Of a stretch of 64,000 bases of DNA, positions 28,789 to 34,998 are shown one piece after another. Source of the DNA: Candidatus Hodarchaeota archaeon (GTDB taxonomy: Archaea > Asgardarchaeota > Lokiarchaeia > Sigyniarchaeales > SOKP01); contig JBHLKM010000002.1 of assembly GCA_048886685.1 (NCBI GenBank), positions 327,532 through 391,531 of the forward strand, written 5' to 3'. Position numbers and translations under genes: made by a program. The notes under the pieces are model-generated. The model was not told the origin of the DNA. It ran no database searches and was given only the letters and a program-made list of their open reading frames with translations. The stretch's first letter is position 1. Each line of letters starts with the position of its first letter.

Positions 28789-30471
28789 CTAATCTATCTC
28801 TCGTAGAATATCTTGATTCAAAGAGGTTTTATAGGAATCATAAAAGATCGAAGCATATTTTTTATAGAACTCTTCCTTTTTAGAAAGAACTAAGTTTTTA
28901 GCTTCAAAATCAGCTTTACCTTTTGACCAGAATATCGAACCTTGAGTATTAAAATTAAAGTTCTCTTGCTTTTTAATTATCTCTCCTGATTTAATTACAT
29001 ATTCAATGTCGGATAATCCTCTTTTAAAATCTTCATACTGCTTAGATATGTCTATTTCTAAAATATTTATATCCAAAATATTAATGTCTGCATCTGTTTC
29101 GACACTAAGATTGCCTTTAATGCTTCCAAGACCCAACGATCTTGCAGGACCAGCTCTTGTTAGGGTGATAAAATCAGAAAAACTAAGGGAGGTGTTTTCA
29201 TCATTTAATGAATTGTCTTTAAGAAAATCTTCATTCATACCTTTCATAAAATTGTCTCTAGCTTTTTTACTTATTAGCCAAGATGCGATTTCTGGTATAT
29301 TACTTATGTTAGCGTAATTAGGGTAATTTAATGAAAAACATATTTGAGATTTATCTTTAACTTTAAGAGCTAGATCCAATGCGTTTCCCCATAGTATACA
29401 ATCGTGATAATTCTTCTTATCTAAAGTTCTCATTGAAACAAATGAATCTCCTTCAAATTCAACTGCTGAGCTTATTAATTTATACTGCTTTTCGAATGCA
29501 TCCATAGTTAACATAGAATTTATCAGTCGCCTATCTGAAGTGATAAGAGGATTTATTTCATTAAAGGCAACAAAACCTAAACCTATACTGAAATTTGGAT
29601 TATTATTTAGAAAATTAATTAAATCTTCATTACTTCCATCATAGGCATAAGAATTCGCGTGAGCTATATGGAAAATTTGATTACGCTTGATATCTGAATT
29701 GGTTTGTTGATTTGCTTTTAAATTTAATGATTTTATTCTTTCTAGAATTATGAAGAGATTTTTCTTACCAATTTCGTTTTCATATCCATCAATATGAGCA
29801 TGAACCGAATGTGGTAAACCCATTGATTCTACACATCTCACCACATTTTCATAGACATCTAAAACAGAATAATTGTATAATCTACCTTGTTTGGATAAAT
29901 CTTCTCTTAATTCTTTAAAATCCCATGTCTCACATTCAAAAGGATTATAGACTTTAAATCCAAATCCATATGTTTTAGATAAGAGATCCGAGAGAAAAAT
30001 TGCCATATCCTTAATTTTTCCCCTTTGAAACTCTAGTTCAAGAGGCCAGAAATTACTGATATTTAATAACATTGCCTTATCTAATACTGGTAATTGTTGA
30101 AAGTTGAAAATTGTCTGTTTTGCTAATGATGGAAATACATTGGCTTCAAGTATAAAAGTGTAACCCATCGAAATATATTCTTTAGCAATATTTTCTAATG
30201 TTAATCCCTGCCACAGTTCTTTAAATGAATTATTTTTAGATCCTAATAATCTTGCCCAATTAACTTGCTGAGAAGCAACATGGGTATGAATATCGATAGC
30301 TGAAGGAATGACTGTTTTCCCAGTTGCATCGATTTCTTTTACATCTTTATTATTGGTAAATTTATCTACAATTTTGCCTGATTCTACCAAGATATCTTTC
30401 TTTTCACCCTCAATCTCATTGATGGGGTCATAAATTAGTCCATTTTTAATTATGAGTTTATTTGCTTCCAT
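28789..30471 (-). CDS. fwdA: Formylmethanofuran dehydrogenase subunit A-like amidohydrolase (divergent)
   Basis: IKNG..YDP.N.I.GE, DIHTH, FKVYNP, PHSVHAH, TRAGPA..LG. Confidence 0.8.
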   Translation of the reverse strand: MEANKLIIKNGLIYDPINEIEGEKKDILVESGKIVDKFTNNKDVKEIDATGKTVIPSAIDIHTHVASQQVNWARLLGSKNNSFKELWQGLTLENIAKEYISMGYTFILEANVFPSLAKQTIFNFQQLPVLDKAMLLNISNFWPLELEFQRGKIKDMAIFLSDLLSKTYGFGFKVYNPFECETWDFKELREDLSKQGRLYNYSVLDVYENVVRCVESMGLPHSVHAHIDGYENEIGKKNLFIILERIKSLNLKANQQTNSDIKRNQIFHIAHANSYAYDGSNEDLINFLNNNPNFSIGLGFVAFNEINPLITSDRRLINSMLTMDAFEKQYKLISSAVEFEGDSFVSMRTLDKKNYHDCILWGNALDLALKVKDKSQICFSLNYPNYANISNIPEIASWLISKKARDNFMKGMNEDFLKDNSLNDENTSLSFSDFITLTRAGPARSLGLGSIKGNLSVETDADINILDINILEIDISKQYEDFKRGLSDIEYVIKSGEIIKKQENFNFNTQGSIFWSKGKADFEAKNLVLSKKEEFYKKYASIFYDSYKTSLNQDILREID

Positions 30472-30484
30472 ATTATTTATGATA

Positions 30485-30874
30485 TTATTTTTTTATAATG
30501 GTTTTTAACAAGTCTTTTATATCTAAAACAGTTTCTCTGGTTGCCTCAGCGTTAGTTTTAAGGTTTTTTAATATTAATATTTCATTATTGATTCCTGTTA
30601 GTTGGTTTGCCCAAATTGAAACAGGCATTACTACTGTCCCCAATGGAATTCTTTCATCTTGTTTTACTTTAACTATCGCTTCTCCATTCTCATTTGATAA
30701 TTTTAAGTTCGAGTCTGAGGTTAACTTGAGCTTATTGAAATCTTTGGGATTTATGATACCAATTGCGAGATTTTCTTTTAGTGAATTATCATCCCCAAAA
30801 GAATATTCTTTTACTTGATCATAGTCAACCATTCTCACAGTATTTAATATCATTTCCATTTTTCTAACCTCCAT
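30485..30874 (-). CDS. fwdD: Formylmethanofuran dehydrogenase subunit D-like
   Basis: LNTVR, INPKD...L, GTVVMP.SIWAN; operon position. Confidence 0.75.
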   Translation of the reverse strand: MEVRKMEMILNTVRMVDYDQVKEYSFGDDNSLKENLAIGIINPKDFNKLKLTSDSNLKLSNENGEAIVKVKQDERIPLGTVVMPVSIWANQLTGINNEILILKNLKTNAEATRETVLDIKDLLKTIIKK

Positions 30875-32168
30875 TTAAGCCTTCAATCAACTTAGAAAGA
30901 ATCTCTTCGTCAGAGATTATATTATTTGGTGGATTTATTATCTGTTTTAATTCTATTGGCACATGGTCTAACCGATAAGCTAATCCTCCACATTCAATAC
31001 CAGTAACAGCTGAAGGAATGCTTACTTCAGCTACATTCAGGGTTGCTGACTTCTTATTATCAATAAGAATTATTGGTTTTGAAGCCAATTTCTTGCTAAG
31101 TTTCCATGGTAGATGTGAAATAGGGTCTGATCCAACAATTATAGAACAATCAAATTCGTTGTTATTAATTTTTGAGATTATTGTATTTGATGTGTCAACC
31201 AATTGATTATCAGAAAATTGTAAACTATGGTTTTTTCCTAATAAGGCTAAAGCAACATGGTCAAAACCAGTCATATTATAATGCCCTCCTAACATCATAA
31301 CTGCCATTCGACCTTTTTTTTGTTTCACATTTATCATTTGAACTAGTTCAAGTAATTCTTGTATTACATCAGGCTCTTTTGATGAACCTAAAATTCCTTG
31401 ACCAATGAAAATTATCCCATATTCAGTGTTTGTTAACTGAATTAATAACCTCCTTAAATCATCTTTGTCGATACCAGCAACACCAGATGATGGAATACTA
31501 TCAGTTGTACAACATTCTTCCTTTAAAGCCCGTATTAGCTCAATATCTTTTCCAGAATCAACTTTTAAAGCAATATCACGAACACCCATAACTCCAAAAG
31601 ATGCGGTTTTAACAGGATCTATAATAATTACTGTTTTTATTTCTCGTCCAGTCATTCTGAATTTTCCCCGTGAAAAAAGTACTTTATTTAATAAACGAGG
31701 TATTGATTCTGCTACATTAGCACCCCAAAATATCAATAAATCTGCTTTATTAATTGCTTCTGAAATTGTCGTCAATGTTATTCCTGTTTGTTTTGTAGCA
31801 TTAAGAACCTTACCTTGGCAAATTATGGAATTAGAATCAATAAATCCATTAATTAATTTAGCTAATTCAATTCCTTTTAACTGGGCCTGAGAACTGACAG
31901 TAGAAAAACCATATAACAACGGTTTAGATGAACTTTTTATGATTTCAATTGCTTTTCTCAAAGCTTTTTCAAGTGAAACCTTGGCCGTTTCACCGTTGTT
32001 CCGAATAAACGGAGATACTAGACGATTTTTGCTAGTAATAAGATCGTACTTTTCTTTCCCTTTTAAACAGGCACCTATAATTTCGTGAATATATAAACCA
32101 TCAGTTTGAACAATTATGTCATCGCAAAGGAGTGAACACCCGGTGCATGTGGTTCTTTTACCTACCAA
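30864..32168 (-). CDS. fwdB: Formylmethanofuran dehydrogenase subunit B-like (divergent)
   Basis: CTGCSLLCDDI...C, ADLLIFWGAN, GHYNMTG, GSDPISH, GIECGG.AYRLD.VPI. Confidence 0.82.
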   Translation of the reverse strand: MVGKRTTCTGCSLLCDDIIVQTDGLYIHEIIGACLKGKEKYDLITSKNRLVSPFIRNNGETAKVSLEKALRKAIEIIKSSSKPLLYGFSTVSSQAQLKGIELAKLINGFIDSNSIICQGKVLNATKQTGITLTTISEAINKADLLIFWGANVAESIPRLLNKVLFSRGKFRMTGREIKTVIIIDPVKTASFGVMGVRDIALKVDSGKDIELIRALKEECCTTDSIPSSGVAGIDKDDLRRLLIQLTNTEYGIIFIGQGILGSSKEPDVIQELLELVQMINVKQKKGRMAVMMLGGHYNMTGFDHVALALLGKNHSLQFSDNQLVDTSNTIISKINNNEFDCSIIVGSDPISHLPWKLSKKLASKPIILIDNKKSATLNVAEVSIPSAVTGIECGGLAYRLDHVPIELKQIINPPNNIISDEEILSKLIEGLNGG

Positions 32169-32892: not shown

Positions 32893-33744
32893 ATGTCTGA
32901 AGAAGAGATTCCAGATATCGATTTAAAAGAAATGATGATGAATGAGAGAGAGAAGAGCATAAAGACAAATATGGAAAAAATCAAAAATAAAATTGTTATC
33001 ATTTCTGGTAAAGGTGGTGTTGGTAAAACTACTATTGCGGTTAATCTTGCTATGAGTTTAGCCAGTATTGGGCTAAGAGTGGGGATTCTTGATGTAGATA
33101 TAACAGGTCCAAATGTGCTTAAAATGCTAGGTGTAGACCCAGAACTAAAACCAAGAGTTGACGTAGAAGCTAAAAAATTTTATCCTATTAATGGCCCCCT
33201 AAACATGAAAGTAATGAGTATGGCATTTTTAACATTAACCCCTGATGATCCTGTTATCTGGAGAGGTCCAATGAAAATGAGTGCTGTTAGACAATTTTTA
33301 GGGGACGCTATGTGGGGGGAACTTGATTATTTAATATGTGATTTACCACCAGGTACTTCTGATGAGACTCTCGATATACTACAACTAATTCCAGATGAAA
33401 ATGTTGTAATTGTTACAACTCCACAACAAGTAGCCTTAATGGATGCAAGGAAAACAATAAAAATGGCAATGGTAATGCAAAGAGAAATCCTTGGAATCAT
33501 TGAAAATCATTCAGGCTTCAATTGTCCTCATTGTGGTAAATACATAGATTTATATCCTCCTGGTGGAGCAGAACAAGCAGCTATTGACTTTAATATTCCA
33601 TTATTAGGAAAAATACCTTTTGAAGTAGAAATAAGTCAACAAGGAGATCAAGGATTACCCTTCGTTTTAAAATATCCTGATAATAAAGCTACAAAGGCAT
33701 TTAAAGGTATAGTAAATAAAATGAGAGAGATTTTAGAGAAGTAG
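32893..33744 (+). CDS. mrp: Mrp/NBP35 Fe-S carrier ATPase, second paralog
   Basis: Same motifs as 6676 with long identical stretches. Confidence 0.93.
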   Translation: MSEEEIPDIDLKEMMMNEREKSIKTNMEKIKNKIVIISGKGGVGKTTIAVNLAMSLASIGLRVGILDVDITGPNVLKMLGVDPELKPRVDVEAKKFYPINGPLNMKVMSMAFLTLTPDDPVIWRGPMKMSAVRQFLGDAMWGELDYLICDLPPGTSDETLDILQLIPDENVVIVTTPQQVALMDARKTIKMAMVMQREILGIIENHSGFNCPHCGKYIDLYPPGGAEQAAIDFNIPLLGKIPFEVEISQQGDQGLPFVLKYPDNKATKAFKGIVNKMREILEK

Positions 33745-34475: not shown

Positions 34476-34628
34476 TTATAGCTTGATTTCAATATTTATT
34501 GTTTCAATATTTTCAGGAACTGCTTTGGTGGATTTCAGGTAACCCAGAATTATGTTTGTTAGCATTTCTTGCATGAAATCCTTTAAAGGGATCTGTTTTT
34601 CATTAACTGTAAGTATTGCTTTTAACAT
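34476..34628 (-). CDS. 50-aa protein resembling the C-terminal extension of MobB-FeS fusion proteins
   Basis: MLKAILTVNEKQIPLKDFMQEMLTNIILGYLKSTKAVPENIETINIEIKL*; below the ORF-track cutoff. Confidence 0.65.
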   Translation of the reverse strand: MLKAILTVNEKQIPLKDFMQEMLTNIILGYLKSTKAVPENIETINIEIKL

Positions 34629-34714
34629 AATTATCCCTAAACATACTGATTTTTTAAAATTTTACCTAATAATAAATAGTAATTTTATAAAAAACACCGA
34701 AACCTTTGCTAGGT

Positions 34715-34756
34715 TTGTCCTCTTACAACCATCATTTTCTTGTAAAAGTCATCCAA
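34715..34756 (-). promoter_or_regulatory. Eukaryote/Lokiarchaeota-type SECIS element (K-turn)
   Basis: RNA UUG-GAU-GA-CUUUUACAA-GAAAAUGAUGG-UUGUAAGAG-GA-CAA: AUGA/GA core, 9-bp helix (8 WC + 1 GU), AAAA in loop; in the 3' UTR of the UGA-containing ORF. Confidence 0.75.
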
Positions 34757-34770
34757 CTCGCTTTTTAATT

Positions 34771-34998
34771 TTACAATAAAAGCCCAACATTTATTTGTGC
34801 TATATAATTTCTCAATAGTTCTAATAATGGAAGATTTATAATTGCACAAACTCAACCACCACCATTACTAGTTTCGTTTTGTAAAGTAAAGATTAAAATT
34901 ATTGTGATTGCTGTTGCTATAGCGACTATTCCTAATATCAGCATAAGTATCCTATTGGACTTTCTTTTTCCTAAATCTTGTATTTCAGAATCTATCAT
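34771..34998 (-). CDS. Candidate small single-pass membrane selenoprotein (75 aa, Sec49)
   Basis: MIDSEIQDLGKRKSNRILMLILGIVAIATAITIILIFTLQNETSNGGG-U(TGA 34854-34852)-VCAIINLPLLELLRNYIAQINVGLLL*; SECIS-like hairpin downstream. Confidence 0.7.

Follow-up and report, generated by a model that had tools for sequence, protein, structure and literature searches.

A lokiSECIS element with a three-way junction downstream of a candidate membrane selenoprotein gene in Candidatus Hodarchaeota archaeon

An earlier note on a 64,000-nucleotide stretch of DNA from Candidatus Hodarchaeota archaeon (the window, contig JBHLKM010000002.1) described a SECIS-like hairpin with a kink-turn (K-turn), eukaryotic in type, in an archaeal intergenic region. 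It named no gene that such an element would serve. The locus raises three questions: what kind of RNA element this is, on which codon it would act, and whether a second hairpin beside it turns it into a switch. Every part of the hairpin that had been listed is found where it had been placed, on the minus strand, and the fold drawn from those parts stands except that a lower helix, formed by 34760-34757 and 34701-34698, had been overlooked. The location reads differently: the site belongs to a hidden gene of 75 aa, as its 3' UTR, and the SECIS starts 18 nt past the TAA of that reading frame (Table 1). From sequence comparison we conclude that the RNA is very probably a type I lokiSECIS with one fold, comprising a lower helix (P1), a three-way junction with a side hairpin (P3), a C-stem, an AUGA/GA kink-turn, and a 9-bp upper stem, and that it directs the reading of UGA codon 49 as selenocysteine (Sec, U).

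Table 1. Features of the SECIS element and neighboring genes, in window coordinates.
Feature	Positions	Strand	Remarks
Candidate hidden selenoprotein gene, 75 aa	34771..34998	minus	ATG 34998, UGA codon 49, TAA 34773-34771
Predicted single transmembrane helix (about residues 18-39), after Lys/Arg-rich patch	34882..34947	minus	hydropathy (mean 2.96)
Putative Sec codon UGA in GGG-U-V-C	34852..34854	minus	99 nt before SECIS AUGA
Lower helix P1, 5' arm	34757..34760	minus	pairs with 34701-34698; covariation
K-turn 5' side: C-stem UUG, 3-nt bulge GAU, tandem GA	34749..34756	minus	UUG 34756-34754 pairs with CAA 34717-34715; bulge 34753-34751; G.A pairs 34750-34749 and 34719-34718
AUGA core of SECIS	34752-34749	minus	
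Upper stem, 9 bp, with 11-nt A-rich apical loop, last base G	34720..34748	minus	helix 34748-34740 with 34728-34720; loop 34739-34729, starting GAAAA
K-turn 3' side: GA and C-stem CAA	34715..34719	minus	GA 34719-34718 directly 3' of upper stem
Side hairpin P3 of 4 bp; GC conserved in its 5-nt loop	34702..34714	minus	third arm of junction
Lower helix P1, 3' arm	34698..34701	minus	covariation
U-run	34689..34694	minus	possible transcript end in window copy; not conserved in family
Downstream 50-aa gene, no UGA	34476..34628	minus	resembles C-terminal domain of archaeal MobB/FeS proteins

The element and its relation to known SECIS types

Eukaryote-like SECIS elements of the K-turn type have been published for Lokiarchaeota since 2016 (PMC4989117). 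In the lokiSECIS of Mariotti et al. (2016, PMC4989117), AUGA precedes a stem of 9 bp capped by an 11-nt loop that has adenines on its 5' side and G as its last base; GA follows, and the whole lies near the stop codon. This element is known from HdrA-VhuD, VhuU, and PrxL (PMC4989117) and is the Asgard type I eSECIS-like element of Huang et al. (2024, PMC11227280). All published features that we compared, namely AUGA before the stem, stem and loop size, adenines among the first five loop positions, the last G, GA (or AA; here GA) after the stem, a 3' UTR position near the stop codon, and Sec machinery in the genome, are found here, as are short conserved pairs below the core, and the element type is therefore already known. 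What differs is the lower helix and the 3' side hairpin, which do not appear in the available text of either paper (PMC4989117, PMC11227280). The three-way fold thus apparently represents a fuller, so far undescribed structure of the lokiSECIS.

The earlier note had preferred a eukaryote-like K-turn element over the methanococcal type, and the covarying structure bears this out: it lacks the methanococcal arrangement, in which a GAA/A bulge separates the GC-rich lower stem from a short upper stem made entirely of GC pairs. With the eukaryotic type I SECIS the element shares the AUGA/GA kink-turn core, unpaired apical adenines, a 3' UTR location, and an apparent minimum distance to the Sec codon, but its upper stem is shorter, and a 3-bp C-stem plus three-way junction replace the internal loop and helix I. 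The k-junction of the TPP riboswitch (Wang et al. 2014, PMC4005666) likewise combines a K-turn with a three-way helical junction; there, however, the K-turn loop is itself the junction, whereas here a covarying 3-bp C-stem separates a complete K-turn from it.

The host genome (4.4 Mb, 31% GC) encodes a tRNA-Sec, two selD genes with in-frame UGA, SepSecS scoring over its cut-off, and two genes with L7Ae domains; the scores of PSTK-like and EFSec-like genes fall short of the curated cut-offs, narrowly or by a wide margin. In its set of selenoproteins (HdrA, VhuD, VhuU, SelD) and in its SECIS type the genome matches Lokiarchaeia.

Covariation and the other SECIS elements of the genome

Single-sequence folding of the region gives an energy unremarkable against shuffles (z = 0.29), and Rfam yields no match to the element at the gathering threshold. 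The case therefore rests on rarity of the pattern and on comparison. We aligned 41 homologous elements over four helices (P1, the 3-bp C-stem, the 9-bp upper stem, and P3). In this alignment 87% of cells are paired and 19 of 22 pairs change on both sides, including all nine pairs of the upper stem; none of 500 shuffles scored as high, and alignments slid out of register were 33-54% paired. The check across orthologs that the earlier note had called for thus gives strong support. RNAalifold, run unguided, predicts the upper stem as well as P1. Another 32 elements, from outside the training set and fitted to the model, are 88.5% paired, with 20 of 22 pairs changing on both sides and P3 92.6% paired. 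The two central C-G pairs of P3 are nearly invariant, so that covariation support for this helix rests on its outer pairs. Invariant in all 41 elements are the UGA of AUGA and, in the apical loop, three As and the last G.

Loose AUGA...GA patterns are common by chance (414 matches), and a strict pattern, built from the published lokiSECIS features, and a covariance model were therefore used instead. The strict pattern has six sites in the 4.4-Mb genome and 0, 0, 0, and 0 in four Markov-simulated genomes; genes with in-frame UGA precede five of these sites, and the sixth, inside a coding region, is probably a chance match. A covariance model trained solely on elements of the selenoprotein family described below found, across the whole genome, the SECIS elements of three hdrA-vhuD pairs, one hdrA, and vhuU. 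The three-way fold with P1 and P3 is common to the hdrA, vhuD, and vhuU elements, each with P1 and P3 sequences of its own. Nine of ten genomes outside the genus of the window, all nine from other families, gave no match to the model, which may reflect the specificity of the model or the effect of a first-look filter; we therefore claim the junction only for family f1 and for three loci from another family of the class (L108-L110), in which its presence was judged by eye.

Several further elements of the genome came to light. A reading frame of about 155 aa (C14:111739-112209, minus strand; L086 / L120) contains a tandem UGA-UGA (H-A-D-U-U) and has a lokiSECIS 14 nt past its stop that adopts this three-way fold as well. 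It sits downstream of what we read as an ACR3-like transporter gene, has no NCBIfam match, and keeps both TGA codons in all 31 matches, found in 28 of 30 genomes of the genus; it is probably another unlisted selenoprotein family. A SECIS-like element with a longer apical region lies 15 nt after a 286-aa reading frame of unknown family (C20:64955-65034, minus strand; L087). In vhuU (C-U-L-S-C; C4:102247-102322, plus strand; L088), the stop codon UGA doubles as the AUGA core of the gene's own SECIS, an arrangement already published for Loki VhuU.1. Two tandem selD genes (C13:56676-58803, plus strand; L090 and L091), each with an in-frame UGA, carry a similar AA-variant core motif (ACGAUG...) directly after the stop, to which the type I model gives no match. 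Finally, an AUGA...GA hairpin at C1:145760-145850 (minus strand), with an A-rich loop and a longer apical part, was not scored by the model, and no UGA-containing reading frame was seen upstream of it.

A candidate membrane selenoprotein family

In the window, the neighbor upstream of the 75-aa reading frame is divergent, on the plus strand, and the gene downstream has no UGA, which leaves the 75-aa frame as the only plausible target of the SECIS. GGG-U-V-C occupies residues 46-51 of its product, with a 26-aa tail after U. A low-confidence AlphaFold model (pLDDT 68, pTM 0.38) has a helix over residues 11-42 and places Sec in a loop between two helices. Searches of 44 members against Pfam and NCBIfam brought up no family that passed its cut-off, just a scatter of weak matches to membrane helices, and no homology was found to the known Asgard families SelD, FrhA/VhuU, HdrA, FrhD/VhuD, PrxL, AhpF-N, and DsbA-like. 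Huang et al. (PMC11227280) list seven Asgard families, and this one is not among them, nor among the 11 archaeal families to the extent that these are named in the available text of a 2026 review (PMC13188914); a targeted literature search, whose coverage of subscription papers is thin, returned no description of it. On sequence grounds, the protein therefore appears to represent an unannotated, apparently undescribed membrane selenoprotein family.

When every stop was read through, profile searches accepting E-values up to 0.001 gave matches in 96 of the 159 genomes of the class, the majority of them from the family to which the window belongs; a few are weak and confined to the helix. Identity to the protein in the window is often only 15-40%. 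Seventy homologous loci were extracted, from related genomes, so that the counts that follow are not independent and overstate independence. All 70 have UGA at the same site, compared with 14.5% UGA among the stops of long reading frames in the host genome, and none of the 70 has Cys there. A SECIS is detectable in 68 of 70; in L077 the UGA is present and the SECIS was not resolved, and in L109 the SECIS was not matched. Past the UGA, 34 of 43 loci keep the frame open as far as the SECIS; the other two frames do so in 2 and 13, and the shuffle expectation is 4.8. In close pairs the tail has a dN/dS of 0.45 and the body one of 0.36. As judged from these sequence comparisons, the reading frame past the UGA is under coding selection. 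Public gene calls for the family are mostly fragments of 43-54 aa that end at the UGA, or else read-throughs with Trp.

New selenoproteins are usually checked further against a Cys-containing ortholog; the homolog searches yielded none that we accepted. Two Cys-containing candidates, P0046 and P0048 (E about 3e-4), were not counted as orthologs because one contig carries a bacterial smpB and the other is a short gut-metagenome contig.

The tail is poorly conserved in sequence and ranges from 1 to about 40 aa, with 26-33 aa in most members. Cys stands two residues past U in 28 of 48 members, against 0.9% Cys in the rest of the tail, and within four residues of U in 41 of 50, leaving nine of 50 without a nearby Cys; with the variable tail, this means there is no universal single redox motif. 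The distance from UGA to AUGA is 44-118 nt across the family, mostly near 90-118 nt even where the tail has been lost, in line with the minimum-distance idea of PMC4989117. Between helix and U lies a non-basic linker with a median of about 11 aa. Lys and Arg together average 4.9 residues ahead of the helix and 0.26 in the stretch from helix to U, from which the positive-inside rule predicts an N-terminus inside and Sec outside.

Some members are built differently. In L021, L067, L068, L071, L072, L106, L111, and L112, a stop follows one or two residues past Sec with the downstream SECIS kept (GGGG-U-C-stop and GTG-U-GG-stop are examples); these are the most SELENOK/S-like forms of the family. 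Of the pair L037 and L079, one has a second in-frame UGA (U-P-C-U), and the other has C-K-R-U, an acidic linker, and a frame that continues through its SECIS. In many relatives an uncharacterized multi-pass membrane protein of about 340 aa (L033:375-1394, plus strand, and homologs; end near HKEG) is encoded on the same strand about 95 nt upstream of the selenoprotein gene. It has no NCBIfam match, is not found at the corresponding position in the window, and is a possible partner of the selenoprotein.

The layout recalls the SELENOK/S group, defined by an N-terminal helix, a Gly-rich stretch, and U near the C-terminus (PMC10650576). Both are small, with one N-terminal membrane helix and a Gly-rich segment before Sec. 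Sec is second or third from the C-terminus in a minority of members, four of 50 in one set and more in other sets, although not in the window protein with its 26-aa tail. The differences are the lack of a sequence match, the predicted N-in/Sec-out topology, the short non-basic linker, the tail usually present, and the frequent U-x-C.

Alternative readings and proposed function

The earlier note had also proposed that a second hairpin (34716-34700), with the U-run that follows it to 34689, could compete with the K-turn and tie Sec decoding to termination or to read-through into the gene starting at 34628. A hairpin overlapping the 3' arm of the K-turn is indeed present, but its core is the third arm of the junction, and the overlapping pairs are not conserved. 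The longer hairpin shares two bases with the C-stem and two with P1 in the window copy, where it lies 1.6 kcal/mol below the three-way fold by nearest-neighbor energies that ignore K-turn stabilization, a gap that makes breathing between two registers possible; a U6 run follows it, and in each of the 27 loci with sufficient flank the 50-aa gene lies downstream in the same orientation. The overlap, however, is limited to 2 bp, and neither the upper stem nor the P3 core is affected by it. Of 41 homologs, 31 break the outermost pair of the longer hairpin, whereas 32 hold the rival C-stem pair at the same base, with 14 compensatory changes. A T5 run occurs within 16 nt in only 17 of 47 homologs, the 50-aa gene lies anywhere from about 70 to 650 nt beyond the SECIS, two loci have a gene on the opposite strand in between, and the same P3 is found on the SECIS elements of hdrA, vhuD, and vhuU, genes that do not adjoin the one at 34628. 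Nor is there the GC-rich hairpin with conserved U-run of an intrinsic terminator or attenuator; a bacterial-type scan found 0 terminator-like sites. With the extra pairs unconserved, the U-run infrequent, and opposite-strand genes inserted, a termination or read-through switch is unsupported. We reject a conserved switch, and coupling of this kind is highly improbable; the U-run may end the transcript in the window copy. A separate switch candidate, in which P3 would invade the upper stem, was also discarded, having no covariation and 370 of 500 shuffles scoring as high.

For the protein, the reading we prefer, a UGA decoded as Sec in a membrane selenoprotein, has to be weighed against three others. 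Were translation to end at the UGA, giving a membrane peptide of 48 aa, and the SECIS an orphan or meant for another gene, the annotation of the family as 43-54-aa peptides and the weak conservation of the tail would be explained; the invariance of UGA in 70 loci against 14.5% usage in the genome, the selection on the tail frame, and the lack of another target on either side (a divergent plus-strand gene upstream, a gene without UGA downstream) make this highly improbable. True ancestry or orthology to eukaryotic SELENOK/SELENOS would account for the single N-terminal helix, the Gly-rich stretch before U, and the U second or third from the C-terminus in several members. Yet no member matches the SelK or SelS Pfam models at E 0.1 (among the matches listed, covering 25 of 31 families), the charge bias predicts the opposite topology to the cytosolic C-terminus of K and S, the linker of about 11 aa is not basic, and most members have a tail of 26-33 aa. 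The failed profile match, the linker, and the predicted topology mark the protein as a SELENOK/S look-alike and not a member, and we consider such descent improbable. A further alternative accepts SECIS and recoding as real and sees the protein mainly as a selenium gauge or sink, in which passage of the UGA (48-aa versus 75-aa product) or membrane-parked selenium matters, and not catalysis. The lack of any Cys version in the 70 loci, the variable tail, the members that end one or two residues past U, and the spacing from UGA to SECIS, mostly near 90-118 nt even without a tail, all fit that idea. The enrichment of Cys near U and the conserved Gly-rich exposure of U do not, and no consistent downstream target gene was found; we hold a gauge or sink to be unlikely.

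The 50-aa gene itself is probably not a SECIS target. Its product matches NF011062 with E 7e-5, far below cut-off. The protein is stand-alone and highly conserved in the genus, a conserved neighbor of the selenoprotein gene, and no longer forms of it were found, which is weak evidence. Its gene lies a few kb from genes that we read as fwdB/D/A-like (28789-32168) and from one for an Mrp/NBP35 ATPase (32893-33744).

If the preferred reading of a lokiSECIS serving a membrane selenoprotein holds, the K-turn core would be bound by a protein with an L7Ae domain, a binder of this type being suggested because no SBP2 has been reported in Asgard archaea (PMC11227280). By analogy with SECIS biology, that protein would help to deliver EFSec with Sec-tRNA, which would decode the UGA 99 nt upstream of the AUGA. 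P1 and P3 may serve as a clamp or binding platform, not a switch. The product would be a 75-aa single-helix membrane protein with a cytoplasmic N-terminus and Sec on a Gly-rich loop at the outer face.

A Cys next to U and Gly-rich exposure of U are typical of a reactive Sec. A U-x-C selenylsulfide, or an intermolecular Se-Se or Se-S bond, might exchange with thiols of envelope proteins or remove peroxide or soft metals. We infer redox chemistry at the cell surface as the most likely job of the protein and give it roughly an even chance. A bolder proposal is that this is an Asgard-specific, obligately Sec family (no Cys version) of surface-display membrane selenoproteins, the first in archaea and an analog or forerunner of SELENOK/S, with the junction as recognition site for an Asgard SECIS-binding factor that replaces SBP2; this is possible, and we think it rather doubtful.

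How archaea recognize a SECIS in the 3' UTR without SBP2 is an open question (PMC4989117). An RNA made for pull-down or probing needs to contain the full structure backed by covariation (P1, P3, C-stem, and K-turn); constructs limited to the published core of 9 bp and 11 nt would lose two helices. The 75-aa gene shows that lineage-specific Asgard selenoproteins escape surveys based on homology, and the family-trained SECIS model points to at least one further unlisted family in the host genome, that with the tandem UGA-UGA.
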